Source: Promethearchaeota archaeon (GTDB lineage: Archaea; Asgardarchaeota; Heimdallarchaeia; Hodarchaeales; Hodarchaeaceae). From it: a stretch of DNA of 24,000 nucleotides. This document shows, in pieces, positions 1,240-23,326 of the stretch (its first letter is position 1; each line of letters begins with the position of its first letter). A model generated the notes under the pieces. That model was given only the letters and a program-made list of their open reading frames with translations, was not told where the DNA came from and searched no databases. Location: contig JBHLPQ010000005.1 in assembly GCA_048939265.1 (NCBI GenBank), forward strand, positions 24,736-48,735. The letters run 5' to 3'. A program made the position numbers and the translations under genes.

Positions 1240-1273
1240 ATTGATTTCAAAAGTATGTGTTAAAGTTCTTATA

Positions 1274-3903: not shown

Positions 3904-3911
3904 CAATTTGA

Positions 3912-5317: not shown

Positions 5318-5320
5318 GTA

Positions 5321-7561: not shown

Positions 7562-8146
7562 ATGACGACTAATGAAATAGATATATCTCCAGAATCACTT
7601 AAAAAAGTAGTAAAAAAGATTAAGATAGAAGAAGATCTGAAAAAATTGGAGAAAAAGAAAGAAAAGCTTAAAATTCGTGCTGAAATCGAAGAATCAGATT
7701 TCAGTGAAGAAATAAATGAGCTTGATCTGAAAATCGCAGAATTAATTAAAGAAAAAGAGCAATACGGCACATTAGAGCATCCGTTATTTGATCTGGTAAA
7801 GAAACAGAAAATCTTACAAGAACGTATTAAGAAATTAGAGGATAAAAGGCCCACAATTCAAAACTCAGTATATGAATCTCTTAAGAATGAATATTTGGGA
7901 GAAAAAGAAGCAGTAACACAACAAATTGATCAGGTTATAGATCAATTAAAAGAATTAAATCGAGGAGCTTCGAAAGGTGCTCAATCCCTAAAATATAGTA
8001 TCGAAGAACTTACTGTCCGAAAAGAGATAGAAGAAATTCCAGAAGATGTATTCAATCAGAGGATTTCGGATTTGAAGAATGAGCTAACACAATCAGAGGA
8101 ATTACTGTCAGCCACAAAGTTCCTACTAGAAATGGTGAAAGAATAA
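7562..8146 (+). CDS. Hypothetical coiled-coil protein
   Basis: The 194-aa product from the first ATG is Lys/Glu-rich with heptad-like periodicity throughout (KKLEKKKEKLKIRAEIEE..., LKNELTQSEELL). I recognise no catalytic motif. The ORF track starts it at a TTG at 7529, and I prefer the ATG at 7562. Confidence 0.5.
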   Translation: MTTNEIDISPESLKKVVKKIKIEEDLKKLEKKKEKLKIRAEIEESDFSEEINELDLKIAELIKEKEQYGTLEHPLFDLVKKQKILQERIKKLEDKRPTIQNSVYESLKNEYLGEKEAVTQQIDQVIDQLKELNRGASKGAQSLKYSIEELTVRKEIEEIPEDVFNQRISDLKNELTQSEELLSATKFLLEMVKE

Positions 8147-8470
8147 TTGACTTCAGAATTCACAATCCGATTAAAAGAAGCAGAAGAATTAGTTGAGAAT
8201 AGTTGTGTTAAAAAATATTTAATCCGTTTGAAAAGTACCGAACACGTAGAACGATGGGTTGTTGTCGGAAACACACGAAATTACTTAATTATGGTGAATC
8301 CTTATTGGTGTCGCTGTTATGATTTTCAACATAGTGTATTGAATAACCGTGTTCCTCAATGCAAACACAACTTAGCTGTTCAAATCGCACTTCGTGACAA
8401 AAAATATGATACTTATTATCTAAATAAGGAAGAATATGATTTAATTCGTTCAGAATTCTTATTAACTTAA
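8147..8470 (+). CDS. SWIM-type zinc-finger protein
   Basis: It carries a CxCx(n)CxH signature: C-R-C-YDFQHSVLNNRVPQ-C-K-H, followed by NLAVQIAL. The TTG start immediately abuts the TAA stop of the coiled-coil gene (TAATTG), suggesting coupled translation. There is no in-frame ATG before residue ~49. Confidence 0.6.
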   Translation: MTSEFTIRLKEAEELVENSCVKKYLIRLKSTEHVERWVVVGNTRNYLIMVNPYWCRCYDFQHSVLNNRVPQCKHNLAVQIALRDKKYDTYYLNKEEYDLIRSEFLLT

Positions 8471-9468
8471 CCATCTCCTCTTTCAAGTACCAATATTTTC
8501 TCAAAAAGCTGAAAGAGGAAATTTTTAATAGTTTTAATTTCCAATAAGGGTGCGTTGTATCCTGCTGCGCTATCGTGTCCCCCTCCTGTCCCTCCAAACT
8601 GGTTTATTAATTCAGGGATAATATCTTTTCCAAGAGATATTCCTGTTTCTTTTGGAAGACTTGAAGTTGTACGTAAGCTGATTCGTGTTTCCTGTTTCCT
8701 ATTCGCTATGACAATAGTAATATCTCCTCCCAAAAAGATGAGTGAACGAGCTGCTGCTGCCTCAAACGAGCTCACATATGAAAATAATAAGATTTTGTCT
8801 TTAATGGTAACCCTCTTCATACGTTGAGCTGCTTTAATGCATGCTAACTTTTCTGATTGGGTACGAGAAGAAGTGAATAGTTTCATTGTATCAAGATAGA
8901 TATTTGGACTATTCTGGAGGAGAAAATTGACACAATCGAAAAGTTCGCTATCAGCGTTTAGAAATCGTCTTGTATCATAAATAATTCCTGCAAGAAGCCC
9001 TTTAATTACCTGTTTTGTAAGAGGGATTTCCTCATTGTAATACCATGATGCAATGATTTCAGTAGTTGAATAGAAAGAATTCAGTTGATAATCAAATATT
9101 ACTTCAACTTCTGGTGGTATAGGGACATGATGATCTATAATAGCAAATTGCCTTTTAGGAGTAATCAATTGAGGATCGATATAATTTGTATCAAGAAACA
9201 CAAATAATGCGGGAGGATTTACTTGGTTGACCTCAATGGTTTCTAAATGAAAATCAGAAAACTCTAATAGATTGTGTCCTAAAACGCTCAGTGTGGGTTC
9301 TAGAGTACGAATTATTAGATTAGGGTTCGTTATTTGAATTAAATGGGTTAAACCAATAGCTGCTCCAACAGCGTCAGGATCAGCTTGAGAATGCATTACT
9401 AAAACAATCATACCTTGAAAATTTCTAAGAAATTCTAAAAACATACTAGGAGAAGGAATGGGTCTCAC
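8467..9468 (-). CDS. DHH/DHHA1 family phosphoesterase (NrnA / small RecJ-like)
   Basis: DHH motifs appear in order: HSQADPDAVGAA, FLDTN, IIDHHVP and IIYDTRRF, followed by the DHHA1 motif GGTGGGHDSAAG. It is 333 aa long. Confidence 0.8.
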   Translation of the reverse strand: MRPIPSPSMFLEFLRNFQGMIVLVMHSQADPDAVGAAIGLTHLIQITNPNLIIRTLEPTLSVLGHNLLEFSDFHLETIEVNQVNPPALFVFLDTNYIDPQLITPKRQFAIIDHHVPIPPEVEVIFDYQLNSFYSTTEIIASWYYNEEIPLTKQVIKGLLAGIIYDTRRFLNADSELFDCVNFLLQNSPNIYLDTMKLFTSSRTQSEKLACIKAAQRMKRVTIKDKILLFSYVSSFEAAAARSLIFLGGDITIVIANRKQETRISLRTTSSLPKETGISLGKDIIPELINQFGGTGGGHDSAAGYNAPLLEIKTIKNFLFQLFEKILVLERGDG

Positions 9469-9481
9469 TTTTTTTCACCCA

Positions 9482-10012
9482 CTACTCGTTATTTAACATA
9501 GCTTCAATTTCTGTATGTAACAGGCGCACTCTCTTGAGAATCGGATGTGAGTTTTTGAGACGAGTACTGTATCTTTCAATCACTTCATCGATTGATAAGA
9601 GAGGTACGTTTTTTGAAATATTATCCGCATAGGTGATTATTTTTTCTTCTAGAGTTCTAGGGAGATAATCCTGAAAAGGTAATCCAAATTCTCTCGCTTC
9701 AATTTTTGTTATTCCGCCAAAAAGATGATTTTCAGCTACCTGAGCTACCTGCTCTACAATACCTTCTTTTCGCAGAATTTTAGCACCAACAATACCATGA
9801 TCTAAGCGATGAGATCGACAGCGACCAATATCGTGTAATATAGCGCCTGCCATAATAAGATGACAATCAATTGCTAATTTTTTATCTTTAAGAATTCCTG
9901 CAATGTTCAATGCCGTTTGCGCTGTTAATATTGAATGTGAAATAACATTTGGTGAAGTTGAGTAGTTTAGGAGTAATTGAATACATTCAGTATAATCTGG
10001 ATAAGATGCCAT
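9482..10012 (-). CDS. HD-domain metal-dependent phosphohydrolase (small archaeal HD protein)
   Basis: It has an H...HD signature (SHSILTAQ..., AILHDIGR) followed by HGIVGAKILRKEG and ENHLFGG. It is 176 aa and lies 13 nt upstream of the DHH gene on the same strand. Confidence 0.8.
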   Translation of the reverse strand: MASYPDYTECIQLLLNYSTSPNVISHSILTAQTALNIAGILKDKKLAIDCHLIMAGAILHDIGRCRSHRLDHGIVGAKILRKEGIVEQVAQVAENHLFGGITKIEAREFGLPFQDYLPRTLEEKIITYADNISKNVPLLSIDEVIERYSTRLKNSHPILKRVRLLHTEIEAMLNNE

Positions 10013-10150
10013 AGTTCAGGATCTCGTACAGATGTTTATTTTGATTCAATATGTACTTTGATTGTTTTCTGAAAAGTTCTCAAATATCCTATTTTTCACA
10101 ATGAAAGGAAGGGGTTTGAATCCTCGACACGGCCCTGTGCCTGAAAGATG

Positions 10151-10288
10151 TAGGGACGGGGGGATTTTCATTAGACGGCATATACTCATACTAATTTTGA
10201 ACCCCCGATCTCTTGGTCCCGAACCAAGAATCCTTTAGCCATCATATCTTCCTCAGATACAATTAAGACCAAACTAGACTACGTCCCT
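10151..10288 (-). tRNA. tRNA-Pro(CGG) with two non-canonical introns (D loop and T loop)
   Basis: Hand fold on the minus strand: acceptor AGGGACG/CGTCCCT, U8, D stem GTCT/GGAT, anticodon stem CTTGG/CCAAG, loop TTCGGGA (anticodon at 10219-10221), T stem GGGGG/CCCCC and discriminator A. The gene is 138 nt because of a ~29-nt insertion in the D loop (about 10238-10266) and a 31-nt insertion in the T loop (10165-10195). The T-loop insertion is framed by helix TTCA/TGAA and 3-nt bulges AAA and AAT. There is no intron at 37/38 and no encoded CCA. Confidence 0.85.
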
Positions 10289-10442
10289 TTTCTAATTTTG
10301 TATTCAATTGTATTCTAAGGATTTCAATTCTATAAAATCAAAGTTTGCGTATGATTTAAGCTTTTCTGGCTTAGGTATCCCTAAAAGAGGTATGATGTAT
10401 TTTGATGGTGAATTCATTCTCAAGCAAATTGAATGAAAAAGA

Positions 10443-10847
10443 TTAAAGATCTTCAAATCCTTCGTCTACTATTTCCTCATCTTCATCTGAGACTTCTTTG
10501 GCTTCTTTTGCCGCTGTTGCCGCTGCTAATGTAATAAATTCCGAATAACGTGTAAGAAGTTGACTGATTTTGTCATCTGATAAACGATCACCAGTTATCG
10601 CTCGGACATCAATCGGTTTTTTGGGATTTATATTCAGGATTTGGACAACAAGGATTCGAGGAAGATCAAATTCTTCTTTTAATGCTTGAATAGCTTCCTC
10701 CGAGAAAGCAGCATCACGTGATAATTTCTCAGCATGTTGTGCTGTGACCCGTTGTACATAATTGATACCTGTTTCCTCTCGAATTTTCAAAAGTTCATGT
10801 ACTTGCCCTAAAGTAATCGGTTTTTCATCCAGGACTTTTCTAACCAT
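10443..10847 (-). CDS. rpoF: DNA-directed RNA polymerase subunit Rpo4/F
   Basis: The N-terminus MVRKVLDEKPITLGQVHELLKIREE and the overall helical HRDC-like pattern resemble Rpo4/F. It sits immediately downstream of L21e, the gene order conserved across archaea. It carries an unusual Ala-rich plus acidic C-terminal extension. Confidence 0.8.
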   Translation of the reverse strand: MVRKVLDEKPITLGQVHELLKIREETGINYVQRVTAQHAEKLSRDAAFSEEAIQALKEEFDLPRILVVQILNINPKKPIDVRAITGDRLSDDKISQLLTRYSEFITLAAATAAKEAKEVSDEDEEIVDEGFEDL

Positions 10848-10879
10848 TTTTAACTACCATTCTACAAAAATGCTATTTA

Positions 10880-11176
10880 TCAGTGTAGTTGTGCTTTAAG
10901 ATGTTCAGGTCGGGCGATTATTTTCTTATAGCTATTTCCATCGGAAACTTGGATTAAGTACGATTGTCCACGTTTTTCTAAAACAACTCCGGTTTTCCCA
11001 TGAAATCTTCTATGGGGGCGTCCTTTTTGAACACTAGGTTCGATAACAATATTTACTTTGGAGTTCACCTCATAATTCGCTAATGTTCGGGATAAAGAGG
11101 GTAAACCACGTTTCCTCGGATGTTTAGAGAATATTTTCCGTGTCCTAAAATTCATACCTTTTGATTTCTTAACCAT
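10880..11176 (-). CDS. rpl21e: 50S ribosomal protein L21e (eL21)
   Basis: The 98-aa product has FRTRKIFSKHPRKRGLPSLSR, KVNIVIEPSVQKGRPHRRFHGKTGVV and ARPEHL, all hallmark eL21 segments. Confidence 0.95.
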   Translation of the reverse strand: MVKKSKGMNFRTRKIFSKHPRKRGLPSLSRTLANYEVNSKVNIVIEPSVQKGRPHRRFHGKTGVVLEKRGQSYLIQVSDGNSYKKIIARPEHLKAQLH

Positions 11177-11315
11177 TCTGTTCTTTCTCCAAGTGATTGT
11201 GCTCTTTTAGGGTTTTAAGTTAAGATAAGGGCTATTGGCTTCAGTAACACCACTAGAAAGGGTTTTTTTAAACATATTTTTGGATTTCTTTTGATAAATC
11301 CTTCAGACGAAGATA

Positions 11316-12671
11316 TCAAAAGGAGTCCTTCTCATTCAAAACTTCAATAACGTCAAGTTGAATAACCGCAGCATTAGTATTAAGACGATCTGAAAGATTC
11401 GGTTGAGTTCGTCCACCATCTCCACTGATTAACTCTTTCACATATAGTCCTCCCTCACAAACTACATATGCTGTCAATTGTTGTGGTTCCAATTTCTCAA
11501 TCTGGAATTTTTGAACTTTTCTTACCCGAATTTTATCAGCGCGACGATGAACTACTCGCAATGGGGTTCGCTGTTGAATAAGTGAGCCAGAAAATTCATC
11601 TACAATAGCTGATATTTCCGTTTCTTCAAGATGGATAGGGGGATCTAAAGAAATAATCATTCGATAACCTTTTGCATTCCTACTCGATCGTGTCTTAAGC
11701 TCTCGAACTTTAGCCCGGGTAGTTAGTCCTTCGATATCAATTTCAACTTTTCCTTTTGCTTTTTTATTTACCATTTCCTTAATTTGTTTGAGATTTAATT
11801 TTCTCTTTTTTGGTTCAGAGATTTCAAGAATAAACGGTCTTCCATTTCCTAGCATAAGGGCATCGATATCTTCTCGGCCTGAACCGTGAAATTTGCTGGC
11901 TCTTCCTTCAGCTTCAACACGGAAAGGTTCTGAAACGTATTCTTCCACTGATTCTTGGTACATCTTTCCCGTAAAATTACAATATTCACACCCCTTCCCT
12001 CTACATTTCCGACAAAACCATTTTGACTGTGGGATTCCCCGTTCTAATTTTCTGTATCGCCCCAATATGAAAAGAGGATTTGGTTTAATATGAATTTGAT
12101 TATTGAGAAGATCAAATGTTAATACAATATCTGGAGCTTTAAATTCTACAGTCGCGTAATCTATTCGTTCTTGTAACATTTTACCAATTTCACGGTTAAA
12201 CTCAGATTTAATCGCCTCTCCAAATTCAAGATTATAGGTACTTCGAATTGAATCTTCTTTATCGATTATTGAAGGAGAAAATTGACTTCCCACAAGAAAA
12301 GTAGAAAATTCATAGTCATCAAGAATTTTTAGAGCATCTTCAACAATTGTTTTCATATTTTGAGAAGAAAGAATTCCCTGACAAATTTCACAACGGGAAT
12401 CATTGGCTTGTATTTCTGGATGAAATCGTTGGATTGATCTTTCCCCAATTATAAAGTCTTCAGACAACAAAGAAGATATTTTTAGAGGCTCCATTTTTGA
12501 TAATCGGTACGTATTCTCCCATTCCATTAGAAGTAGTATCTTTAGTGCTTCACCTCGTTTTTTATTAGATAGTCCTGATAATAAATTACCAAATTGTCGA
12601 CCTAAGCATGAATTACAGCAATGTACATCCATAATTAGTTGCTTAGCCTTGTTTAAGATTGGTAATTCCAT
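11316..12671 (-). CDS. pus10: tRNA pseudouridine synthase Pus10 (Psi54/Psi55)
   Basis: It has an N-terminal zinc-ribbon CCNSCLGRQFGNL plus CEIC and CRKCRGKGCEYC, a THUMP-like middle region, and a catalytic segment GSGREDIDALMLGNGRPFILEI with the conserved Asp. I place the start at the internal ATG at 12671 (MELPILNKAKQL...), which matches the usual Pus10 N-terminus. The ORF track extends to 12737. Confidence 0.9.
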   Translation of the reverse strand: MELPILNKAKQLIMDVHCCNSCLGRQFGNLLSGLSNKKRGEALKILLLMEWENTYRLSKMEPLKISSLLSEDFIIGERSIQRFHPEIQANDSRCEICQGILSSQNMKTIVEDALKILDDYEFSTFLVGSQFSPSIIDKEDSIRSTYNLEFGEAIKSEFNREIGKMLQERIDYATVEFKAPDIVLTFDLLNNQIHIKPNPLFILGRYRKLERGIPQSKWFCRKCRGKGCEYCNFTGKMYQESVEEYVSEPFRVEAEGRASKFHGSGREDIDALMLGNGRPFILEISEPKKRKLNLKQIKEMVNKKAKGKVEIDIEGLTTRAKVRELKTRSSRNAKGYRMIISLDPPIHLEETEISAIVDEFSGSLIQQRTPLRVVHRRADKIRVRKVQKFQIEKLEPQQLTAYVVCEGGLYVKELISGDGGRTQPNLSDRLNTNAAVIQLDVIEVLNEKDSF

Positions 12672-12869
12672 CAACAGACTCCCTTCATTAGGAATGGATA
12701 GGAAGCGAAGAGTATTTGCCTCAATTTTGAGAGACAATTTGTTTTATAATCGCATATCTAAGAAATTTTTTTATTTTTTTTCTCCAGATCAAATAATTGA
12801 ACAAAAAACAGAACCCAATTGTAATTAAATGATTCAGTTTATCTAGATAACAGGAGCAGGTAAATTGTT

Positions 12870-13412
12870 ATGAGACGATTTTTTGTGATTTCAAACACTG
12901 TAGATACTTCTAAATCTTTATCTCTAAATTCCTTAACAGGATATGGCCGATTGGATGTTCTATGCCGCTGCATTAATGCAGCTTTCTTTCTTTCCAACGA
13001 TTTTCGAAAGAATGTTGTCCTCAGTATTTTTTTTAAAATTAATAATAAAATTTTAGAAATATGGGGAAATGAAGTTCGTGGGATAAATCCAGACGAACGA
13101 GCTATTGCAGGAGTACTTAAACGTGTCTTTAACGGTCATTCTCACCCTGGGACAAGATTTTATTCGTCTTCTTTAGAACAATATTTTCAAAAACGGAATT
13201 TTATTATTATTGATAGAAAAGGGGATCAATTATTAAATAAACTTAGCGAATATGATTCATTCATGCTTGGAGATCAGGTGGGTTTTCCAAAAGAGATTTA
13301 CTTTCTGTTTACACATCAACCAAAAATATCCTTAGGAATCCCTATATATTTAAGTTCGCAGGTGATAACAATCCTTAATTATCTCCTAGATAACATTGAA
13401 CTAGATGAATGA
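12870..13412 (+). CDS. trmY: tRNA (pseudouridine54-N1)-methyltransferase TrmY (SPOUT, DUF358 family)
   Basis: The N-terminus MRRFFVISNT...LTGYGRLDVLCRCINAAFFLSNDFRKNV and the C-terminal MLGDQVGF...LGIPIYLSSQVITILNYLLD (SPOUT knot region) fit the family, as does the ~180-aa size. It is divergently paired with pus10. Confidence 0.8.
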   Translation: MRRFFVISNTVDTSKSLSLNSLTGYGRLDVLCRCINAAFFLSNDFRKNVVLSIFFKINNKILEIWGNEVRGINPDERAIAGVLKRVFNGHSHPGTRFYSSSLEQYFQKRNFIIIDRKGDQLLNKLSEYDSFMLGDQVGFPKEIYFLFTHQPKISLGIPIYLSSQVITILNYLLDNIELDE

Positions 13413-13447
13413 CATTCTAAGTAGAAAAACATCGGAGTTTGATACGT

Positions 13448-14812
13448 ATGCTTGATTCTTTGAGCTCATCATTACGGAAAGCAATCATGAAAGTTCGTGG
13501 TGCACCTATAGTTGATGAGAAGTTAATTAATGCCTTAATCACCGATTTAGAAAATGCTCTTCTTGCTGCTGATGTTAACCTTGATTTGGTACTCACTGTT
13601 ACTGAAAGAGTACGTGAAAGAGCTCTCAAAGATATCTTACCCATGGCTATCAGTCGTAAAGACTATACTCTAAAAGTGATCTATGATGAACTAGCTAGTC
13701 TATTGGGGAAAAGACATACTCCATTACGTCTAAATCCTGATGATCTATCAATTTTAATGTTCATTGGTATCCAAGGATCAGGTAAAACAACATGTATCGG
13801 AAAAACTGCAAATTACTTTCAAAAAAGGGGATATTCTGTTGGAGTTATTGGTGGAGATACGTTTAGGCCTGGTGCTTTAGCCCAACTTCAACAATTTCTT
13901 TCACCCATAAATGTGGAAGTTTTTGGGGATGAAAAGGAGAAAAAAGCTTCTAAAATCATTAAAAGGGGATTAAAGCACTTTGAAGAGAAAAAAAATATCA
14001 ATCTTATTTTAGTAGATACAGCAGGACGACATAAAGAAGAAAAAGCTTTATTAAAAGAAATGCAAGAAATTGCTAAAATAGCTAAACCCACAGAAATTGT
14101 ATTAGTAATTGATGCTACAATAGGACAACAAGCTCAAGCACAAGCCGATGCTTTCAATCGTGCAACCCCTATTGGATCGATCATTTTAACAAAGATGGAT
14201 GGTTCAGCTAAAGGCGGGGGAGCAGTCTCTGCTGTTGCTGTGACAGGAGCAAAAATTCGATTCTATGGTGATGGGGAAAATATTCAAGATTTAGAGGAGT
14301 TCAACCCAACTCGATTCGTTGGATCTTTATTAGGGCTGGGTGATATAGAGGGTTTGATACAAAGTGTTAATGAAGCATTTGATGAGGAAGATACGGCCGA
14401 ACTTCGCGATGCATTCAAAAAAGGGAAGTTAACATTACGCCATTTCAAAATCCAGATGGAAAATGCTAGTAAACAATCATCAATTGGAAAATTGGTTTCA
14501 AAAATCCCTGGCGTAAGCACATTAACAGGTCAACAACCTATATTAGAAGCAGAAGGTCAAAGAAACATGAAACGCTTCATTGCGATTTGTAATTCGATGA
14601 CAGATGAAGAATTAGATAATGCTCGAATAATTAAAGGTAAACGTATTCAGAGAATAGCACAAGGATCAGGAACTTCCCCTCAAGAAGTGAAACTTCTTTT
14701 AAATCAGTTTAATCAAGCTTCAAAACAATTAAAAATGATGCGAAAGATGAGAGGACGACGGGGAGCTCCTCCAGGTGGGATCCCACCAGGCTTAGAAGGC
14801 TTACTCGGATAA
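13448..14812 (+). CDS. srp54: Signal recognition particle protein SRP54
   Basis: It has an N domain MLDSLSSSLRKAI, a G domain with GIQGSGKTT, DTAGRH and TKMDG, and an M domain with a Met-rich segment (LKMMRKMRGRRG). The ATG at 13448 is preferred over the track's TTG at 13439. Confidence 0.95.
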   Translation: MLDSLSSSLRKAIMKVRGAPIVDEKLINALITDLENALLAADVNLDLVLTVTERVRERALKDILPMAISRKDYTLKVIYDELASLLGKRHTPLRLNPDDLSILMFIGIQGSGKTTCIGKTANYFQKRGYSVGVIGGDTFRPGALAQLQQFLSPINVEVFGDEKEKKASKIIKRGLKHFEEKKNINLILVDTAGRHKEEKALLKEMQEIAKIAKPTEIVLVIDATIGQQAQAQADAFNRATPIGSIILTKMDGSAKGGGAVSAVAVTGAKIRFYGDGENIQDLEEFNPTRFVGSLLGLGDIEGLIQSVNEAFDEEDTAELRDAFKKGKLTLRHFKIQMENASKQSSIGKLVSKIPGVSTLTGQQPILEAEGQRNMKRFIAICNSMTDEELDNARIIKGKRIQRIAQGSGTSPQEVKLLLNQFNQASKQLKMMRKMRGRRGAPPGGIPPGLEGLLG

Positions 14813-14862
14813 GGTTGAAGCGATTAAAAATAAAATTCTTGTGTTATACAAAGAAAAAGAAA

Positions 14863-15000
14863 TGCTCCGACCGGGATTTTCCAACCACAAACAATGCGTT
14901 TAGGTTCTTTGAACCCGGGTCACAGGGGAGCTCCTGAAAGTCTGAGTAACAGACTCTCATTGAGAGCCCTGAATGATGGGCCGAGCTACACTATCGGAGC
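14863..15000 (-). tRNA. tRNA-Glu(CTC) with canonical intron plus T-loop intron
   Basis: Fold: acceptor GCTCCGA/TCGGAGC, D arm GTGTAGCTCGGCCCATCAT, anticodon stem CAGGG/CCCTG and T stem CCGGG/CCCGG. A 32-nt intron at 37/38 (14929-14960) has central helix CTCT/GGAG flanked by bulges CAA and CTC, giving the loop CTCTCAC. A second 31-nt insertion splits the T loop TTCAAA|..|T (14877-14907). The discriminator is A, followed by an oligo-T tract. Confidence 0.9.
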
Positions 15001-15023
15001 AAATCGTGAAAACCAAATCTCAA

Positions 15024-15032
15024 TAATATATA
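15024..15032 (-). promoter_or_regulatory. Putative TATA box for tRNA-Glu
   Basis: The minus strand reads TATATATTA about 24-32 nt upstream of the mature 5' end at 15000. It is supported by position and composition only. Confidence 0.3.
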
Positions 15033-15079
15033 GATTTTTTTGATACAATATTCTTGCATGGACTAACCTGAACTAATTA

Positions 15080-15300
15080 TGCTGGGGGGGGGCCTTTCGT
15101 GAGGTAAATCGCAATTTACCTGAATTCGAACCCCCGACTTCGGGATGTCTCGTCTGAAAGCGCGATCTGTGCCCTTAGAAGGTTATGAGTATTATTCTCA
15201 GATTATGAGTCCCGCGCTATCGGCCTTCTGACTATTGACAGTAAGATTATACCAGGCTTAGCCACGATATAATGATTATTATCGTTTAAGCCACCCCAGC
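15080..15300 (-). tRNA. tRNA(CAT), elongator Met-like (could be Ile2), interrupted by four inserted segments
   Basis: The exons assemble into a canonical 73-nt cloverleaf. Its parts are acceptor GCTGGGG/CCCCAGC, UG, D stem GCTA/TAGC, D loop AGCCTGG.A, G26, anticodon stem CGGGA/TCCCG and loop CTCATAA. These are followed by variable AAGTC, T stem GGGGG/CCCCC, T loop TTCGAA.G and discriminator A. The insertions are ~29 nt in the D stem (15260-15288), ~31 nt in the D loop (15221-15251), 57 nt at 37/38 (15147-15203) and 31 nt in the T loop (15094-15124). G1:C72 argues against an initiator. Confidence 0.8.
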
Positions 15301-15322
15301 AAATATAATTGGGGGTAATCAC

Positions 15323-15328
15323 CTTATA
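15323..15328 (-). promoter_or_regulatory. Putative TATA box for tRNA(CAT)
   Basis: The minus strand reads TATAAG at -28 to -23 relative to the mature 5' end at 15300. It is supported by position only. Confidence 0.3.
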
Positions 15329-15487
15329 CGGATGAGCATTCAGCAATACGCCTTGCAGTGGCTCTAGGATTTTAAGGTTATGCAGGAACATCTTTAAGAG
15401 AGGATCAATTTAAAAAATTGTGAAAGGAGGGACAGACTTGGACGTATAATTAACAATAAGGTTATAAACGCCTTTATTTAGTATCTA

Positions 15488-15595
15488 GCCCCGGTGGTGT
15501 AGTCTGGCCTAGCATTGATGGCTGTCAAAGGCTTATCACCTCTGATAGTCTGCCGAACCCATCCGACTCGGGTTCAAATCCCGACCGGGGCGCCA
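15488..15595 (+). tRNA. tRNA-Asp(GTC) with canonical intron; CCA encoded
   Basis: Fold: acceptor GCCCCGG/CCGGGGC, D arm GTGTAGTCTGGCCTAGCAT, anticodon stem GATGG/CCATC, loop CTGTCA|intron|C (anticodon 15524-15526), T arm TCGGGTTCAAATCCCGA and discriminator G. The 30-nt intron is at 15528-15557. CCA at 15593-15595 follows the discriminator; this is the only tRNA in the window with a genomic CCA. Confidence 0.95.
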
Positions 15596-15604
15596 AAAAT
15601 TCAA

Positions 15605-15709
15605 GGGCGCATAGCTCAGCCAGGTAGAGCGACAGGCTTTTAATGATTAAATTTTAATAGTTAAACTGAAGATACCTGTTGGCCGGGGGTTCAAATCCCT
15701 CTGCGCCCG
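15605..15709 (+). tRNA. tRNA-Lys(TTT) with canonical intron
   Basis: Fold: acceptor GGGCGCA/TGCGCCC, D arm GCTCAGCCAGGTAGAGC, anticodon stem ACAGG/CCTGT, loop CTTTTA|intron|A (anticodon 15639-15641) and T arm GGGGGTTCAAATCCCTC. The 31-nt intron at 15643-15673 has central helix CTTT/GAAG and bulges TAA and ATA. The gene lies 9 nt after the encoded CCA of tRNA-Asp (12 nt after its discriminator), so the two are probably co-transcribed. Confidence 0.95.
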
Positions 15710-15715
15710 CTGAAA

Positions 15716-15723
15716 TTTTGTTT
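15716..15723 (+). terminator. Oligo-T tract after the tRNA-Asp/tRNA-Lys pair
   Basis: TTTTGTTT begins 7 nt after the tRNA-Lys discriminator. Archaeal transcription commonly terminates at oligo-T tracts. Confidence 0.35.
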
Positions 15724-15740
15724 CTATTAACCTTGGCTTT

Positions 15741-17015
15741 CTAATTTTTTGGGGTGGCTCTCTCAACAGTTGTAAAGGTCATTGACAAAAGTAAAATAAT
15801 TGCTATGATTGTCATAATGCCTCCATAAATAAATGCAAAGGTAGGGGCTATATAATATAAAGATCCAGCAATGATTCCGCCAAGAATACCCGCAAATCCG
15901 ACAGAAGTCTGTAATAATCCTATTCCAGTTCCTTTAAGATCTTGGGGGAGTAAATCTACTGCGTATGCTTTTTGAATTCCATCAGTTGCAGCATTAAAAG
16001 CACCATATACTCCGAAAAATAGGAAAAGTAGGATAATATTTGTAGTAAATAGGAATCCAAAACATGTAATGGCATATAAAATTAGGCCAATTGCAAAAAC
16101 TTGTTTTCGACCATACTTATCAGACCAATCACCGAAAGGAATAGATAAAACCGTATAGATTATATTAAACCAAATAAAGATAATAATTGGAATTATTAAT
16201 AGCACTAGAGGGGTAGTCATTTCATTCATTCCTAAAACAGCTGTTTTTGAATGAAGAATAAACAAAAATATGGTAAAATTAGCTAATCCAAAGATTATTG
16301 AGACTAGTAGAAATTTATAATAGTTTTTAGGCAAATCTTTCAAATTTTGGATTAATGTAATTTTCAATTGCTCTCTTCTAGAACCATAATCAGCCGATTC
16401 TGAGATAAAAAATAATGGAATCAAAGCAAGTAGTGATATGAAAGCAGAAATGATAATAATAATCTTGAAAATTTCCAATTCACTGATTAAGATGTCGAAA
16501 AAGAGAAGAGCAATTATTAATGCTAGAAATGATCCAATAACAGCTCCTGCTGTGTCCATCATTCGATGAAAACCAAAAGCTTTTCCTCTTAAATTAATTG
16601 AAATTGAATCAGCGAGTAAAGAATCCCGTGGAGCACCTCGAATTCCTTTTCCTAATCTCTCAATCGGTTTCAAGATTAATATTTGTTCCCACGAGTTCGA
16701 TATACCAATTCCTAGTTTCGCAAAAAAAGGAATAAAATACCCTATAGTAATTATTTGTTTTCTTTTTCTTGTCTTATCAGATAAGTATCCGGAAAATACC
16801 TTGACAATATTTGCTACCGCGTCTCCTAAACCTCCAATGAATCCAATAACGATACTAGAGCCTCCTAACGCAGCGATAAAGAGAGGTAATACTGGAGTCA
16901 TCATCTCTCCTGATATGTCCGCAAAGAAAGAGACAAGACCCAGTAAAAGAACATTCCCTGAATACCATTTCACATGCTCCTTTTTTTTGATACCATTAGA
17001 AAGCTTCTGATTCAA
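15741..17015 (-). CDS. Major facilitator superfamily transporter
   Basis: The 424-aa product has about 12 hydrophobic spans in a two-halves organisation. It has MFS-like loop motifs (GYLSDKTRKRK after TM2, DKYGRKQVF after TM8). The substrate is not inferable. Confidence 0.8.
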   Translation of the reverse strand: MNQKLSNGIKKKEHVKWYSGNVLLLGLVSFFADISGEMMTPVLPLFIAALGGSSIVIGFIGGLGDAVANIVKVFSGYLSDKTRKRKQIITIGYFIPFFAKLGIGISNSWEQILILKPIERLGKGIRGAPRDSLLADSISINLRGKAFGFHRMMDTAGAVIGSFLALIIALLFFDILISELEIFKIIIIISAFISLLALIPLFFISESADYGSRREQLKITLIQNLKDLPKNYYKFLLVSIIFGLANFTIFLFILHSKTAVLGMNEMTTPLVLLIIPIIIFIWFNIIYTVLSIPFGDWSDKYGRKQVFAIGLILYAITCFGFLFTTNIILLFLFFGVYGAFNAATDGIQKAYAVDLLPQDLKGTGIGLLQTSVGFAGILGGIIAGSLYYIAPTFAFIYGGIMTIIAIILLLSMTFTTVERATPKN

Positions 17016-17153
17016 TAAATTCCACCCAGTCTCTTTCTTGAACTGACCTTTGATTGACCTGTACTTTTATTTAGCTTTTCTCTTCAGACTATCTAACTGT
17101 TATTTGCTGACAAAGATCTTAATCACAAAAGAGCTTTAGGAGTTTCTTTAATC

Positions 17154-18086
17154 ATGGATGTTATACTAATTGGAAACTCAAACTTTGCAGGTAAAATTGC
17201 AGAAGCATTACCATCTTCAGCCTACATTGGAATTGACGAAAGGATATTTTCTGATGGTGAAGTTTGTCCCCGCTTATTACTCTCTGAGGAGAACCAATTG
17301 AAAGGGGCCCACGTTGTTATTGCACTGCAATTGGAGCTGGATCAATCCAAAAACCAATATTTAGTCAGCTTACTCTGGACAATTTATAATGTTAAACGAC
17401 ATGATCCAGCACGAATTACATGTATAATGCCGTATCATCTCTATTCCAGACAAGATAGAGAATCTAGAAGGGGAGAACCTATTTCAAGCAGACATCTAGC
17501 TTCAGCACTAGAATCAGCTGGAATTGACGATTTTCTTACTATTAATTCACACACTTATGGAAAAGTAGATATTGCTCAATTTTTTACAAATTCTCAAGCT
17601 AACGATCTTTCTGCAATATCAATCTTAGGAACTGCTTTAAAATCACGTCTGTCATCCCCTCGAGAATGTATTTGTCTCTCCCCAGATGAAGGCGCTCTTT
17701 TTCTCGCAAAAGAGCTTGCGCAAGCAATGGACACACCTTATTTCGCTTCTATTCAAAAAACAAGGGATCCACAAACTGGTGAAATAACTCAAGAACTACA
17801 AACTCTTCCTTTCGAAATTAAGGATCAAACAGTGATTATTATAGATGATTTAGTTAGTTCTGGTAAAACGATGATTGGTGCTGCGAAGATCGCAAAAGCT
17901 AAAGGGGCTAAGGAAGTGATTTTTGCTTATATACACGCAGTTCATTCCCCCACTAGCTTTACAACAATGCTAGAAGTGAACCCCATTCTAACTATTGCTA
18001 CAGACACCATTAAAACAGATATCAGTGGACTTACCACTGTGAGTGTTATTCCTCTAATTTGTGACTGGATTAAAAAGAATAGCTAA
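17154..18086 (+). CDS. prs: Ribose-phosphate pyrophosphokinase (PRPP synthetase)
   Basis: It has FSDGEV near the N-terminus, PYHLYSRQDRE (the flexible-loop region) and a PRPP-binding motif IIIDDLVSSGKTM. Confidence 0.9.
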   Translation: MDVILIGNSNFAGKIAEALPSSAYIGIDERIFSDGEVCPRLLLSEENQLKGAHVVIALQLELDQSKNQYLVSLLWTIYNVKRHDPARITCIMPYHLYSRQDRESRRGEPISSRHLASALESAGIDDFLTINSHTYGKVDIAQFFTNSQANDLSAISILGTALKSRLSSPRECICLSPDEGALFLAKELAQAMDTPYFASIQKTRDPQTGEITQELQTLPFEIKDQTVIIIDDLVSSGKTMIGAAKIAKAKGAKEVIFAYIHAVHSPTSFTTMLEVNPILTIATDTIKTDISGLTTVSVIPLICDWIKKNS

Positions 18087-18121
18087 ATCAGTCACCCTGT
18101 GTTTATGCTTTAAAAACGATT

Positions 18122-18265
18122 TCAAGACTCCTGATATTTGTCTATAAGGTCACGGATGGCAGAACGTACAAATTCAGAACGATTTGGATATTTACCATTT
18201 CTGACTAATTCAGCCATGGCATCGATAAGCTCTTCCTCTACATAGAGAGTAACAGTTCGAATCAT
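18122..18265 (-). CDS. Ribbon-helix-helix (CopG/Arc/MetJ-type) DNA-binding protein, 47 aa; absent from the supplied ORF track
   Basis: My translation is MIRTVTLYVEEELIDAMAELVRNGKYPNRSEFVRSAIRDLIDKYQES. It shows the classic RHH pattern: an N-terminal beta strand (RTVTLYV), helix A, a G-x-Y/F-x-(N/S)-RSE turn and helix B. GAGGTG lies 3 nt upstream of the ATG. It is divergent from the methylthiotransferase gene, 68 bp away. Confidence 0.65.
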   Translation of the reverse strand: MIRTVTLYVEEELIDAMAELVRNGKYPNRSEFVRSAIRDLIDKYQES

Positions 18266-18333
18266 TTACACCTCTAGGGAAAAATCAAACACTTCAGTTT
18301 ATATCTCAGACATTAAAAAAAGGTTTTGCACAG

Positions 18334-19674
18334 ATGAATTGTTTGGATCATATTGCAATGAGAACTTTAGAAGAGAGTAAAACTTCTATTCATGTCTTAA
18401 ATTATGGATGTAGTGCTAATCGGGCTATTGCAGAAGGCTTAATGGGGATATTAAAAAGACATGGGTATACTCTCGCCAATTCTATAGAAGATGCTGAAGT
18501 AATAATTGTAAATACATGTGTTGTAAAGCAAAATACAGAGCATAGAATGAAGAGTAAATTACTATCTCTATATAAAACTAAGGAAATTATTGTGACTGGT
18601 TGTTTACCTGTTGTAATGCGTGATTGGATTTCAGAGAACTTACCCAATGCAAAGGTCCTCTTCCCAGAGGTTGCAAAGAACATTATAGAGGTACTTGAGA
18701 ATCGGCCTGTCTTAGAAACGAAGACTACTGTCCCTCACGAATGGTCACAGATGTATTCAGAAGAACGATTTCAATATAATCCTATCATTTCAACGATTGA
18801 AATATCTCGAGGATGTGTGGGAAATTGTGCTTTCTGTATAGTTAGAGATATTAAAGGAACAGTTCGCTCGCGTTCACAAGAATCAATCTTATCTGAAGTT
18901 CAGACCGCATTAGAACAAGGAAGTAGAGAAATTTGGCTTACCTCACAAGATAATGGTGCTTACGGCTGGGATTTCTCCCCCAGGATAAATATCTCAGATC
19001 TTATTAACTCTATCACATGTTTAAGAGGTAATTTTTTCATTCGAGTAGGAATGATGACTCCCATTGCAGTGAAAAGATTTTTCGATCCCTTGATTCAGCA
19101 GATACGGAATCCTAAGGTTTTTTCCTTTCTCCATTTACCGATTCAGGCAGGCTCTAATTCAGTTCTTCGAAGAATGAAAAGAAGAGAGACATATACATAT
19201 TTCATTGACCTTGTCCATCAATTACGCCATGAAATAGATGATTTTGTTCTAGCAACGGATATAATTGTTGGATTTCCAGGGGAATTGGAAGATGATTTCA
19301 AGGCGACTAAAGATCTTCTACAAAGAACAAAACCCGTAATTGTGAACATTTCGAAATATACAGATCGTCCTAATACACTAGCTTCAACCCTACCAAATAA
19401 GATCCCAACAAAAGTTAAAACTAGTAGAAGTCGAGAACTGACAAGATTAACTCAAGATCTAACTAAAAGAGAGCTAAAAAAATGGATTGGTTGGAAGGGA
19501 ATTGTATTAATTGACGAATATGGAAAATTTACTAATCAATATGTTGGAAGAAATCCCTCATATTTGCCAATAGTAATCGATGATAAAGATTTGTTACTAG
19601 GCCAGTTTGTTACAGTCTCTGTAACCGATCTTGGTCCAACATATCTTATTGGTGAAAGTGACAAGACCAATTAA
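18334..19674 (+). CDS. MiaB-like tRNA methylthiotransferase, archaeal/eukaryotic MtaB (CDKAL1) type
   Basis: It has an N-terminal UPF0004 domain (NYGCSANRAIAE...NTCVV), a radical-SAM cluster motif C-VGN-C-AF-C and a C-terminal TRAM-like domain (GQFVTVSVTDLGPTYLIGE). Confidence 0.9.
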   Translation: MNCLDHIAMRTLEESKTSIHVLNYGCSANRAIAEGLMGILKRHGYTLANSIEDAEVIIVNTCVVKQNTEHRMKSKLLSLYKTKEIIVTGCLPVVMRDWISENLPNAKVLFPEVAKNIIEVLENRPVLETKTTVPHEWSQMYSEERFQYNPIISTIEISRGCVGNCAFCIVRDIKGTVRSRSQESILSEVQTALEQGSREIWLTSQDNGAYGWDFSPRINISDLINSITCLRGNFFIRVGMMTPIAVKRFFDPLIQQIRNPKVFSFLHLPIQAGSNSVLRRMKRRETYTYFIDLVHQLRHEIDDFVLATDIIVGFPGELEDDFKATKDLLQRTKPVIVNISKYTDRPNTLASTLPNKIPTKVKTSRSRELTRLTQDLTKRELKKWIGWKGIVLIDEYGKFTNQYVGRNPSYLPIVIDDKDLLLGQFVTVSVTDLGPTYLIGESDKTN

Positions 19675-19684
19675 TCTTTCTATT

Positions 19685-19694
19685 AAAGAAAAAA
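19685..19694 (-). terminator. Oligo-T tract after tRNA-Leu
   Basis: The minus strand reads TTTTTTCTTT immediately after the discriminator base at 19695. Confidence 0.35.
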
Positions 19695-19890
19695 TGCGGG
19701 GGATGGGATTTTCGCCTGCTTAGTTTGAAGCTAAGCAATGTTTCGAACCCACGTACATCTATATGACTGGATTGCTTATCAAATGGCGATCTTAAGTCCA
19801 GCGCCTTTGGACAGCGCATTAATTTATGATATGTTAAGTTATCATCTAGCCCAATTAATGCTGCCTTTGACCTAGCTTGGCTACCCCCGC
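19695..19890 (-). tRNA. tRNA-Leu(TAA) interrupted by three inserted segments
   Basis: The exons give an 85-nt class II tRNA. Its parts are acceptor GCGGGGG/CCCCCGC, D arm GCCAAGCTAGGTCAAAGGC, anticodon stem CTGGA/TCCAG and loop CTTAAGA (anticodon 19792-19794). These are followed by a long variable arm TCATATAGATGTAC, T stem GTGGG/CCCAT and discriminator A. The insertions are 60 nt in the D-arm/position-26 region (19803-19862), 18 nt at 37/38 (19773-19790; helix CTTA/TAAG, bulges AGA and CAA) and 33 nt in the T loop (19709-19741; helix TTCG/CGAA, bulges AAA and AAT). Confidence 0.85.
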
Positions 19891-20048
19891 ATCTTAGAGA
19901 CATAGTCATATTGTTATGGGGGCAAGACTTGCTGGATGGGGATCAGTATTTATCTTTTTAAGGTATGACTATTAATTACCTATCTTAAGAAGCTCCTAAA
20001 AAAAAGAATGTACATCTTGAAATGGCTTAAATTGAATTCTCTAAGCTA

Positions 20049-20852
20049 ATGGATTATTTTTATTTAGAGATGATCAGATTGGTTGAAACTGATATATACA
20101 ATATATTAAAAAAGAATCCAACATGGGATTTTTCATCAGTTATTTTAGTAGAACCAAGTAAACCTCAAAATCTAGGTAATATCGCTCGCGTGATGATGAA
20201 TTTTGGCTTTTTAGACCTTGTACTAGTTAATCCTATTCTTAGCTTATCAGATCCCGAGATCAAGGTTATAGCTCGCCGTGCTGATATGATAATTAATCAA
20301 GCAAAGCTTTTTATGGATTTTCAGGAGGTAAGAGAGAATTTTGATTTCATAATTGGTACTACAGCTAGAGTAGGAGGTGATTACAATCTGAAAAGAATTA
20401 CTATCCCCCCAGAGCGGTTATTAGAGGAAGATTTTTCCTACAATAAGCTAGCAATCGTTTTTGGAAGAGAACAATCAGGTTTATCTAATGAGGAGATTAG
20501 TAGATGTGATTTATTGGTTACAATTCCAACTCACATCGCTTATCCTGTTTTGAACATTTCTCATGCAGTTGCTATTATTCTATACTACCTTTCTCAAAAA
20601 TTCCAAGAAATCTATCAAGTTTCAAAATCAAAATTAAAACACCGAGCGGCTTCATTTAGAGAACGCCAACAATTAGAAGGTTATTTTCAACAAGTGATTG
20701 AATCGACGGGTTATCACCCTGAAAAACATCACGTGGCATTACAAGCTTTTTCGAATATTCTCTCACGAGGATATGTCACAGGACGCGAGCTAACAACTTT
20801 AATGGGAGTAATGAAATGGATCAATCTTAAACTACAAAATAAAGAAAATTAA
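20049..20852 (+). CDS. trmJ: SpoU/TrmH-class (SPOUT) RNA 2'-O-methyltransferase, TrmJ-like
   Basis: It has SPOUT motifs VILVEPSKPQNLGNIARVMMNFG, AIVFGREQSGLSNEEI and LVTIPTHIAYPVLNISHAVAIILY, plus a C-terminal extension as in TrmJ. The true start may be the internal ATG at codon 8. Confidence 0.75.
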   Translation: MDYFYLEMIRLVETDIYNILKKNPTWDFSSVILVEPSKPQNLGNIARVMMNFGFLDLVLVNPILSLSDPEIKVIARRADMIINQAKLFMDFQEVRENFDFIIGTTARVGGDYNLKRITIPPERLLEEDFSYNKLAIVFGREQSGLSNEEISRCDLLVTIPTHIAYPVLNISHAVAIILYYLSQKFQEIYQVSKSKLKHRAASFRERQQLEGYFQQVIESTGYHPEKHHVALQAFSNILSRGYVTGRELTTLMGVMKWINLKLQNKEN

Positions 20853-20990
20853 ATTAGTTAACAATCTCAAGAAAAACCAAACTAAGGAAAACTCTAGAAT
20901 ATATAATAGAAAAAATTAATGAAAAGAAGAAAAAGGAAGATGTATTGCAGTCCTTATACTAATGAAGGCTTAAATTAAAGAAGAATCACA

Positions 20991-20997
20991 TATAAAT
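20991..20997 (+). promoter_or_regulatory. Putative TATA box for tRNA-Gly
   Basis: TATAAAT lies at -32 to -26 relative to the mature 5' end at 21023, in an AT-rich intergenic region. Confidence 0.35.
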
Positions 20998-21022
20998 TAG
21001 TTTCACAAAATCGTTACATCAA

Positions 21023-21095
21023 GCGCCGATAGTCCAGCCTGGTAAGACTCCTGTCTGCCACACAGGTGACCTGGGTTCAAATCCCGGTCGGCGCA
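21023..21095 (+). tRNA. tRNA-Gly(GCC), uninterrupted
   Basis: Fold: acceptor GCGCCGA/TCGGCGC, D arm GTCCAGCCTGGTAAGAC, anticodon stem CCTGT/ACAGG, loop CTGCCAC, T arm CTGGGTTCAAATCCCGG and discriminator A. It is 73 nt with no insertion. Confidence 0.95.
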
Positions 21096-22207: not shown

Positions 22208-23326
22208 ATGAGTGAAAACACAGCCAAAAGCCACGAAACTACTGAAGCGAAGTTACAAGCTTTTATACAGCCAATTGTTCTCGTAATCCTGATAGCCATT
22301 ATTTTATCATTATTCACTCTTGATCTCTATGCAGCAATTCAAGAAGAAAACCCAGACTACTCTCGTCCTGATATTTCACCAATTCCTGAAAATCCGGAGG
22401 ATCCAGGTGGCATAGCTTATGGAGCGATACTAAATATGATTTTTTATGTATCATTAGCTTTTATTGGTGGATTAATAGTTTTGATCATAATGAAGAAAGG
22501 GTTTATTCAGTTTTTAGCATATTTCTTTGCAGCGATGATGGGTTTTAGCTGGTTCGTCTTTGGCTACTTCTATGGAGTTGTCGTTTTAAACGGAGTTCTA
22601 AATCTATTCTGGACAGTCTTTCCTTCCTTCTTTCAACATTGGATTAATAATTTTTTTGACTGGAAGGTGATGTTTGGAGGACAATCGTTTTTCATAATAG
22701 AGATGTTGTTATATCTTTTTTCCATACTCTTAGCTTTACTAGGAGCCTTTTCATTTGGAATTCAGAATTTCGAAAAAATTTGGATCCGAAATGTAATGAT
22801 GATATTTTTTGGCGCAATGATTGGTTCAATGTTGGCAATACATCTTGGATTACTTACTACTGTACTCATTTTGGTAGGTTTATCAGTATATGACATTTAT
22901 GCTGTGTTTCGGGGCCCATTAAAAGGGATTATTGATCATGGACGTGAAACTGCACAACAATTCGAAAATAATATGGTTCCTATTGATGAAAGGGAATTTG
23001 AAAAAGTACCTTTGCTACCAGCTCTCCCCGTTTATTCTACTCCTTTGATAAATATTGGTTTGGGTGACTTTGCATTTTTCAGTATGTTAATCAGTGTTGC
23101 TGTAGTAATAGGTAGTGAATTAGGCACACCAATTCCCCTTATTGCAGCTCTAATTGGACTATTCACGGGAGCCTTTTTTACATTCAGATTATTAAGAAAG
23201 GATCGTGCTCTACCAGGTCTCCCTTTACCAATCTTTGGGGGATTGGGGTGTTTAGTTTTAGGGGTTTTAGGGAGCTTAGTACTTGGAATTATTACCCTAG
23301 ATATGATTGTAGCACTCTTTGTATGA
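22208..23326 (+). CDS. Presenilin/signal-peptide-peptidase family intramembrane aspartyl protease (peptidase A22, archaeal PSH-like)
   Basis: It is a polytopic membrane protein. The two catalytic motifs lie in adjacent TM helices separated by a hydrophilic loop: YD in LSVYDIYAVF and GxGD in NIGLGDFAFF. A degenerate PAL-like segment (PIPLIAAL) follows downstream. Confidence 0.8.
   Translation: MSENTAKSHETTEAKLQAFIQPIVLVILIAIILSLFTLDLYAAIQEENPDYSRPDISPIPENPEDPGGIAYGAILNMIFYVSLAFIGGLIVLIIMKKGFIQFLAYFFAAMMGFSWFVFGYFYGVVVLNGVLNLFWTVFPSFFQHWINNFFDWKVMFGGQSFFIIEMLLYLFSILLALLGAFSFGIQNFEKIWIRNVMMIFFGAMIGSMLAIHLGLLTTVLILVGLSVYDIYAVFRGPLKGIIDHGRETAQQFENNMVPIDEREFEKVPLLPALPVYSTPLINIGLGDFAFFSMLISVAVVIGSELGTPIPLIAALIGLFTGAFFTFRLLRKDRALPGLPLPIFGGLGCLVLGVLGSLVLGIITLDMIVALFV

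Follow-up and report, generated by a model that had tools for sequence, protein, structure and literature searches.

Thirteen putative bulge-helix-bulge introns in six of seven tRNA genes of a Hodarchaeales-like archaeon and their turnover among relatives

The 24,000-nucleotide (nt) stretch of contig JBHLPQ010000005.1 (assembly GCA_048939265.1) analyzed here, referred to below as the window, carries seven tRNA genes between positions 10151 and 21095 (Pro-CGG, Glu-CUC, CAU, Asp-GUC, Lys-UUU, Leu-UAA and Gly-GCC), which harbor 2, 2, 4, 1, 1, 3 and 0 insertions respectively, 13 in total. Are these insertions introns that are spliced out of working tRNAs, or remnants of some other process, and what kind of splicing endonuclease would they call for? 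Judged from the window and from syntenic loci of related genomes, all seven genes are very probably functional, six of them being interrupted by 13 bulge-helix-bulge (BHB) introns that turn over fast. The genes and insertion counts agree with a preliminary description of the same DNA, whose outer coordinates (10151 and 21095) proved exact; it had placed seven introns outside the 37/38 site, a number that has to be raised to eight (two in Pro, one in Glu, three in CAU and two in Leu).

Interrupted tRNA genes and their splice-site motifs

With default settings, ARAGORN called Gly(GCC) (21023-21095) as the sole gene of the seven; with introns allowed it called Asp, Lys and Gly, which were also the only three recovered by Rfam. 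The Pro, Glu, CAU and Leu genes, all on the minus strand, were found by reading the intergenic gaps by hand. After splicing in silico, all seven sequences were called as tRNAs by ARAGORN with the expected anticodons. The T-arm motif GGTTCRAA occurred eight times in the window (2.0 expected; none of 100 shuffles reached eight), and seven of these occurrences fell in the seven tRNA genes. Three extra candidates returned by relaxed ARAGORN searches (2822-2930, 4840-4954 and 16514-16603) were rejected: they lacked GGTTCRAA, and the last two lay inside open reading frames (ORFs). TATA-like A/T-rich elements were seen by eye approximately 22-35 nt upstream of most of the seven genes, and T-rich tracts downstream of several. 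Across these genes introns summed to 443 nt and exons to 533 nt; intron lengths ranged from 18 to 60 nt, ten of them falling between 29 and 33 nt and the remaining three measuring 18, 57 and 60 nt.

In the BHB motif, two 3-nt bulges are separated by a helix of 4 base pairs (bp), and cutting takes place after the second nucleotide of each bulge. In the model used here, this central helix is flanked by an outer exon-exon helix (h) and an intron-internal helix (h'). All 13 insertions fitted this geometry. Genes and introns are given below with window coordinates and strand; central helices are given as pairs formed out of four, and h and h' in bp.

10151..10288, minus: tRNA-Pro(CGG), precursor 138 nt, spliced 77 nt, acceptor end A1-U72; ARAGORN tRNA-Pro(cgg)
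10235..10264, minus: Pro intron 1, 30 nt, D-loop directly 5' of A21 (~20/21); central 4/4, h 5, h' 9; bulges UU|A and AA|A; the outer helix is an alternative helix
10165..10195, minus: Pro intron 2, 31 nt, T-loop 59/60; central 4/4 (U54-A57 paired with intron UGAA), h the 5-bp T-stem, h' 4
14863..15000, minus: tRNA-Glu(CUC), precursor 138 nt, spliced 75 nt; ARAGORN tRNA-Glu(ctc)
14929..14960, minus: Glu intron 1, 32 nt, 37/38; central 4/4, h 5, h' 10
14877..14907, minus: Glu intron 2, 31 nt, T-loop 59/60; central 3/4, h 5, h' 4
15080..15300, minus: tRNA(CAU) of elongator type (Met or Ile2), precursor 221 nt, spliced 74 nt, five exons of 14, 9, 15, 22 and 14 nt; ARAGORN tRNA-Met(cat)
15258..15286, minus: CAU intron 1, 29 nt, D-loop 14/15, relaxed; central 4/4 (GGCU/GGCU), h 0, h' 6
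15219..15248, minus: CAU intron 2, 30 nt, D-stem 22/23, relaxed; central 4/4 (UGGU/GCCG), h 1, h' only with an offset
15147..15203, minus: CAU intron 3, 57 nt, 37/38; central 3/4, h 5, h' 7
15094..15124, minus: CAU intron 4, 31 nt, T-loop 59/60; central 4/4 (UUCG/CGAA), h 5
15488..15592, plus: tRNA-Asp(GUC); Rfam tRNA 43.3 bits; called by ARAGORN with and without intron
15528..15557, plus: Asp intron, 30 nt, 37/38; central 3/4, h 5, h' 5
15605..15709, plus: tRNA-Lys(UUU), 12 nt downstream of Asp; Rfam tRNA 60.1 bits; called by ARAGORN
15643..15673, plus: Lys intron, 31 nt, 37/38; central 4/4, h 7
19695..19890, minus: tRNA-Leu(UAA), class II, precursor 196 nt, spliced 85 nt; ARAGORN tRNA-Leu(taa)
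19807..19866, minus: Leu intron 1, 60 nt, D-loop (~21/22), relaxed; central 3/4 (GGUC/GUCC), h 0, h' of 3 bp, then one bulged A, then 10 bp
19773..19790, minus: Leu intron 2, 18 nt, 37/38; central 4/4, h 6, h' 3
19709..19741, minus: Leu intron 3, 33 nt, T-loop 59/60; central 4/4 (UUCG/CGAA), h 5
21023..21095, plus: tRNA-Gly(GCC), intron-less; called by ARAGORN, Rfam 60.8 bits

The central helix was fully paired in nine introns and carried one mismatch (3/4) in the other four. Five introns interrupted the 37/38 site (Glu, CAU, Asp, Lys and Leu), with the anticodon stem as outer helix, and four the 59/60 site (Pro, Glu, CAU and Leu), with the T-stem in this role; the four D-arm introns lay at ~20/21 in Pro, 14/15 and 22/23 in CAU and ~21/22 in Leu. 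The outer helix reached 5-7 bp in 10 of the 13 introns and only 0-1 bp in CAU 14/15, CAU 22/23 and the Leu D-loop intron. All four 59/60 introns, together with the Pro D-loop intron, had a near-canonical hBHBh' structure. In random placements over the rest of the window, a central helix of at least 3/4 combined with h of at least 5 bp had P = 0.0014; a 4/4 central helix was expected in 2.2% of cases (P = 0.022) and one of at least 3/4 in 15.6%. A blind scan of all position pairs returned the modelled sites as the strongest BHB in every precursor with any candidate above threshold. The possibility that the 57-nt and 60-nt introns hide nested or further introns was also considered and discarded, the BHB scan of the precursors having found none stronger than the models.

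Exon 2 of the CAU gene, 9 nt long (GCCUGGUAU), lies between two introns with relaxed motifs (15219-15286, minus strand); both surrounding BHBs can form simultaneously because they use different exon nucleotides. Asp alone of the seven genes had an encoded CCA (15593-15595, plus strand), which was kept in most orthologs; according to a 2026 preprint, Hodarchaeales have bacterial-type CCA-adding enzymes only. The Asp and Lys genes were separated by 12 nt without a TATA-like element between them in all relatives, and are therefore probably transcribed together.

Intron turnover and compensatory change among relatives

The window SRP54 was 76-96% identical to proteins that, where named, belonged to Hodarchaeota, Hodarchaeales, Heimdallarchaeota or Promethearchaeota, and approximately 50% identical to Thor- and Odinarchaeota proteins. 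For MAGs (metagenome-assembled genomes) carrying the label Hodarchaeota, Hodarchaeum mangrovi, Heimdallarchaeota or Promethearchaeota, SRP54 identity was 79-94%. An SRP54 scan with one genome per species gave 15 syntenic loci (L002-L016), including the 4.94-Mb chromosome CP070695.1 and Ca. Hodarchaeum mangrovi, and the gene order around the locus was conserved in relatives labelled Hodarchaeota or Hodarchaeales. By SRP54 identity and synteny, the window comes from an Asgard archaeon, with Hodarchaeota/Hodarchaeales as the best-matching named relatives. Placement by L21e, SRP54 and AtpA had been proposed in the preliminary description; SRP54 alone was used and led to Hodarchaeota/Hodarchaeales, L21e and AtpA being left aside. 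One of the syntenic loci, L004 (JBHLKY010000003.1), was labelled Candidatus Hermodarchaeota; its SRP54 was 88% identical to that of the window and the locus fully syntenic with Hodarchaeota-labelled MAGs. This label is probably inconsistent.

All seven genes were compared across 13 syntenic genomes labelled Hodarchaeales or Heimdall. Exons were 92.8-99.2% identical to those of the window and shared introns 63.9-88.0%, against 74-82% for alignable DNA overall, which indicates strong purifying selection on exons and partial constraint on introns. Identical exon positions amounted to 70-75 of 75 for Glu (11 relatives), 71-74 of 74 for CAU (10 relatives) and 73-84 of 85 for Leu (7 relatives).

Orthologs lacking an intron showed exactly the predicted junctions for Lys, Pro, Glu 59/60, Leu 59/60 and CAU introns 1, 2 and 4. 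The Lys 37/38 intron was absent in L013 (junction CUUUUA|ACCUGU, as predicted), and Pro(CGG) was intron-less in L005, L007 and L015, with an unchanged exon layout and 66 of 77 exon positions identical. The Glu 59/60 intron was precisely absent in L003, L009 and L016. For CAU, introns 1 and 4 were both absent in L008 and L016 (the former leaving the junction GGCUUA|GCC) and intron 2 in L006, L008 and L013, its central helix UGGU/GCCG being kept in 8/8 carriers; intron 3 was found in 11/11 genomes. For Leu, intron 1 was found in 8/8 genomes, intron 2 was absent in L016, and intron 3 was limited to the window, L007 and L016, being precisely absent in L003, L004, L008, L013 and L015. The relatives also carried introns of their own: in the Glu D-loop (L006, L016), in the Glu variable region, where an intron replaced the one at 37/38 (L013, L016), in the T-loops of Lys (L013, L016) and Asp (L016), and at 59/60 in the Gly ortholog of L008 (32 nt). 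The CAU gene of L013 had a 33-nt T-loop intron with its boundary placed differently (CAT_57).

Turnover was rapid: L003 (SRP54 93% identical) lacked the Glu 59/60 intron, whereas L013 (76%) retained it, and L007 and L015, each at 84%, differed in the Leu 59/60 intron. Clean intron losses must therefore be frequent. Introns are gained, and above all precisely lost, over short evolutionary times within the group, and the presence/absence differences among close genomes offer material for dating these gains and losses. At the syntenic site of L003, L004 and L009 (~6520-6680; 4893-5033 in L009), Pro(CGG) carried 37/38 and 59/60 introns and no D-loop intron, and matched the window at 63-65 of 77 exon positions, though L003 is among the closest genomes; this pattern suggests gene replacement or conversion, not simple intron gain or loss.

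Counting the window and its relatives, a 59/60 intron was found at least once in 7/7 gene families. The 59/60 introns of different genes were unrelated in sequence except for the YGAA that pairs with U54-N57, and clean presence/absence differences were seen among genomes at 84-94% SRP54 identity to the window. A bolder and doubtful proposal, for which we would claim a minor chance, is that in this group 59/60 is a hotspot at which BHB introns are repeatedly acquired and cleanly lost. In that case, a clade often positioned near the eukaryotic stem would provide a tractable natural system for the birth and erasure of BHB introns. As a second possibility, the two long and well-conserved introns may each have a function of their own.

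As read from the alignments, BHB pairing is maintained by compensatory change. The exon G57-intron C pair was replaced by A57-U in CAU intron 4 of L004 and L006 and in Leu of L016; the central U.U mismatch of Leu intron 1 was a U-A pair in L008 and L016 (perfect GGUC/GACC); and the U33.C mismatch of the Asp intron was a U-A pair in L008, L009, L012, L013 and L016. The central helix of Pro intron 1, GGUC/GGCU, had become GGUU/GACC in L011 and L012. RNAalifold, given no model, recovered the BHB for the Glu 37/38 intron, the CAU 37/38 intron and 19 pooled 59/60 introns, each as a stem followed by a 3-nt bulge, a helix and the inner helix; in the Glu case the stem was the anticodon stem, and h' showed GC/AU covariation.

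Both long introns contained conserved motifs. In Leu intron 1, GGGCUAGAUGA (19842-19852, minus strand) was invariant in seven of the eight genomes compared (window, L003, L004, L007, L008, L013, L015 and L016), with one substitution in L013, while the surrounding intron diverged; a covarying hairpin comes after it, and in the RNAalifold structure the motif is paired to exon sequence at the 5' splice site. In the 57-nt CAU intron, AAGGGCA (15170-15176) and CGCGC (15160-15164), both on the minus strand, were retained by nearly all of the eleven genomes. Exon nucleotides 24-28 (GCGCG) are the complement of CGCGC, and the anticodon-loop sequence ACUCAUAA has a copy within the intron. Intron guide RNAs of the Haloferax tRNA-Trp type have a C box RUGAUGA and a D box CUGA. 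Searches of the 57-nt and 60-nt introns for a box C/D guide RNA gave no overlapping Rfam match at E <= 10 and no UGAUGA, nor did either contain a kink-turn (K-turn) pattern; the AGAUGAU of the Leu intron was part of an ordinary covarying hairpin.

Splicing model, rival explanations and the endonuclease

In the precursor, the two splice sites would each lie in a 3-nt bulge, and the bulges would be separated by a 4-bp helix, in which the exon nucleotides directly upstream of the 5' site would pair with the last intron nucleotides. In 59/60 introns the T-stem would act as the outer helix, and U54-N57 would pair with the intron YGAA. By analogy with established archaeal tRNA splicing, EndA would cut both bulges and RtcB would ligate the exons. 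Since the 59/60 precursor would hold U54-N57 in its central helix, T-loop modification would have to come after splicing; this would apply, among other enzymes, to Pus10 and a PF04013 methyltransferase encoded in the window. The Pus10 and PF04013 families act on T-loop positions 54/55, and these are the positions that 59/60 introns sequester. Genes for tRNA modification were interleaved with the tRNA genes of the window:

11316-12737, minus: ORF for Pus10
12870-13412, plus: ORF for a PF04013 (TrmY-like) methyltransferase
18334-19674, plus: ORF for a MiaB-family radical-SAM/TRAM enzyme
20049-20852, plus: ORF for a SpoU methylase

Another ORF (22208-23326, plus strand) matched Presenilin (PF01080), a family of membrane aspartyl proteases familiar chiefly from eukaryotes.

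Several points weigh against functional introns in working tRNA genes. Splicing and the exact cut sites are predicted from the BHB rule, and with repeated junction sequence several cut positions yield the same product. Three motifs are weak beyond the central helix, CAU intron 2 being essentially that helix alone. For Leu intron 1, RNAalifold prefers another local fold, which involves the invariant intron motif and is without covariation; the BHB model was retained on account of the U-A pair that L008 and L016 have in its central helix. The EndA and RtcB of the organism were not seen in the searches of the window, the relatives and the database, whose protein queries were EndA sequences. The view is also that of a 24-kb window, and intron-less paralogs may exist elsewhere. 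This last point, together with the failure of ARAGORN and Rfam to see four of the seven genes, would fit decaying pseudogenes in which random insertions have struck redundant copies, with intact intron-less isoacceptors elsewhere doing the work. Such an explanation is nevertheless very improbable: exons were 93-99% identical among genomes that were 74-82% identical overall, each insertion lay in a BHB with conserved or compensated pairing, the spliced products were complete cloverleaf tRNAs by ARAGORN, and the same loci were the only copies seen in approximately 250 kb of syntenic sequence.

An origin of the insertions as assembly artefacts or as mobile-element remnants (MITE-like, that is, resembling miniature inverted-repeat transposable elements, or integrase scars) can draw on the fact that tRNA genes are common integration targets and on reported integration at Heimdallarchaeum tRNA genes (PMC8813620). 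It is, however, extremely unlikely. An independent Logan assembly of SRR24270829 was 100% identical to the window over 880-14205, the Pro gene included, and homologous insertions occurred in 13 different MAGs. The insertions (18-60 nt) shared no sequence, with between-class matches of only 8-14 nt (E of at least 0.05) in an all-against-all blastn of 103 introns, and they lay at BHB sites inside the tRNA body, whereas integrases act at its 3' end.

With BHB introns in functional genes as the preferred reading, the question passes to the enzyme. In the preliminary description, introns outside 37/38 were taken to demand a broad-specificity endonuclease, and this specificity was tied to EndA subunit architecture; neither step held. 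Ten of the 13 motifs, including all those at 59/60 and the Pro D-loop motif, were near-canonical whatever their location, and intron position is therefore not decisive; as for architecture, inserted loops, not subunit composition, go with broad specificity (Kaneta et al. 2018, PMC5829648). In that study, architecture contributed least to EndA substrate range and inserted loops more, relaxed motifs were linked to loop-bearing EndA, and an (alpha-beta)2 EndA with an L1 loop was described in four Asgard genomes (Loki-, Thor-, Odin- and Heimdallarchaeota).

An ordinary strict EndA that recognizes the motif and not its position might thus suffice for real introns, and the ten near-canonical hBHBh' motifs with outer helices of 5-7 bp speak for it. 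This is rather unlikely, because an outer helix is missing from CAU introns 1 and 2 and from Leu intron 1, four central helices are mismatched, and Kaneta et al. (PMC5829648), who found the L1 loop in Asgard archaea, associate such relaxed motifs with EndA enzymes that carry loops. The case for relaxed specificity consists of the three D-arm introns and the four helices with a mismatch, and the three D-arm motifs without an outer helix probably depend on relaxed recognition of the kind attributed to EndA with inserted loops. The CAU precursor, which combines two relaxed motifs with two near-canonical ones, would be a ready substrate panel for the range of Asgard EndA.

EndA was not found by Pfam in ten window ORFs, nor by tblastn in 253,686 bases (window plus L001-L016), where a positive control on L076 worked; the queries were the EndA sequences of M. 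jannaschii (checked against PDB 1A79), M. kandleri and S. tokodaii, and P0131. A large-database search seeded with Methanopyrus kandleri EndA alpha gave 12 matches (65 candidates retrieved), none assignable to Asgard archaea, the matches being Methanopyrus itself and unlabelled sequences. P0131, the best EndA candidate, was set aside: its contig carries a methanofuran-synthesis gene and so probably comes from a methanogen. In direction, the published work on Asgard EndA agrees with the preliminary inference, and two genes of Atabeyarchaeia-1 are annotated as K01170 endonucleases.

Comparison with known systems

Intron-rich tRNA genes had already been described in Asgard archaea. Kaneta et al. 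(2018, PMC5829648) noted that Asgard tRNA sets seem incomplete owing to undetected disrupted genes, and the Asgard EndA of their survey, which contained no Hodarchaeales genome, has the architecture predicted in the preliminary description. In Atabeyarchaeia and Freyarchaeia, 92-95% of tRNA genes are interrupted by introns, many of them at non-canonical positions; over half of the genes are multi-intron, with up to four introns (e.g. Freyarchaeia Ile2-CAU and Arg-UCU), and tRNAscan misses some of the introns (Valentin-Alvarado et al. 2024, PMC11291895). The expectation of an uncharacterised intron proliferation was thus overstated. The window resembles these archaea in its Asgard affiliation, its multi-intron genes, its non-canonical positions and its four-intron CAU gene; they belong, however, to another class and come from wetland soil, whereas the window is Hodarchaeales-like, and that study gave intron counts without BHB anatomy, ortholog comparison or turnover analysis.

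Among the literature searched, no paper was found describing tRNA introns specifically in Hodarchaeales. Multi-intron Asgard tRNA genes, including those with four introns, are already published (2018, 2024); new here are the detailed BHB anatomy, the recurrence at 59/60 and the presence/absence turnover among close relatives. As ARAGORN and Rfam missed four of seven genes, tRNA counts used for grading Asgard MAGs or decoding capacity will be too low unless prediction is intron-aware and checked by hand.

The tRNA genes of Thermoproteales are reportedly intron-rich too, and Sugahara et al. in 2008 are said to have proposed large-scale transposition, introns of different genes being alike. Thermoproteales are Crenarchaeota, high-GC thermophiles with a heterotetrameric EndA. 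As in the window, single genes hold several BHB introns, and many of the positions used are non-canonical. The window introns of different genes, in contrast, share no sequence, and this lack of cross-gene similarity in the blastn comparison therefore gives no sign of transposition of the Thermoproteales type.

The eukaryotic TSEN endonuclease has catalytic subunits homologous to those of the archaeal enzyme (the PDB Sen2 and Sen34 chains matched M. jannaschii EndA), and the 37/38 site is common to both systems. In eukaryotes, tRNA introns are known from 37/38 only, and an interrupted gene has a single one. In the window, by contrast, eight of the 13 introns lie off 37/38 and one gene has four. 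Hodarchaeales are often placed nearest to eukaryotes (PMC12918454 reference list; 10.64898/2026.05.29.728689). With eukaryotic introns only at 37/38 and Hodarchaeales-like introns also beyond it, the eukaryotic restriction therefore looks derived.

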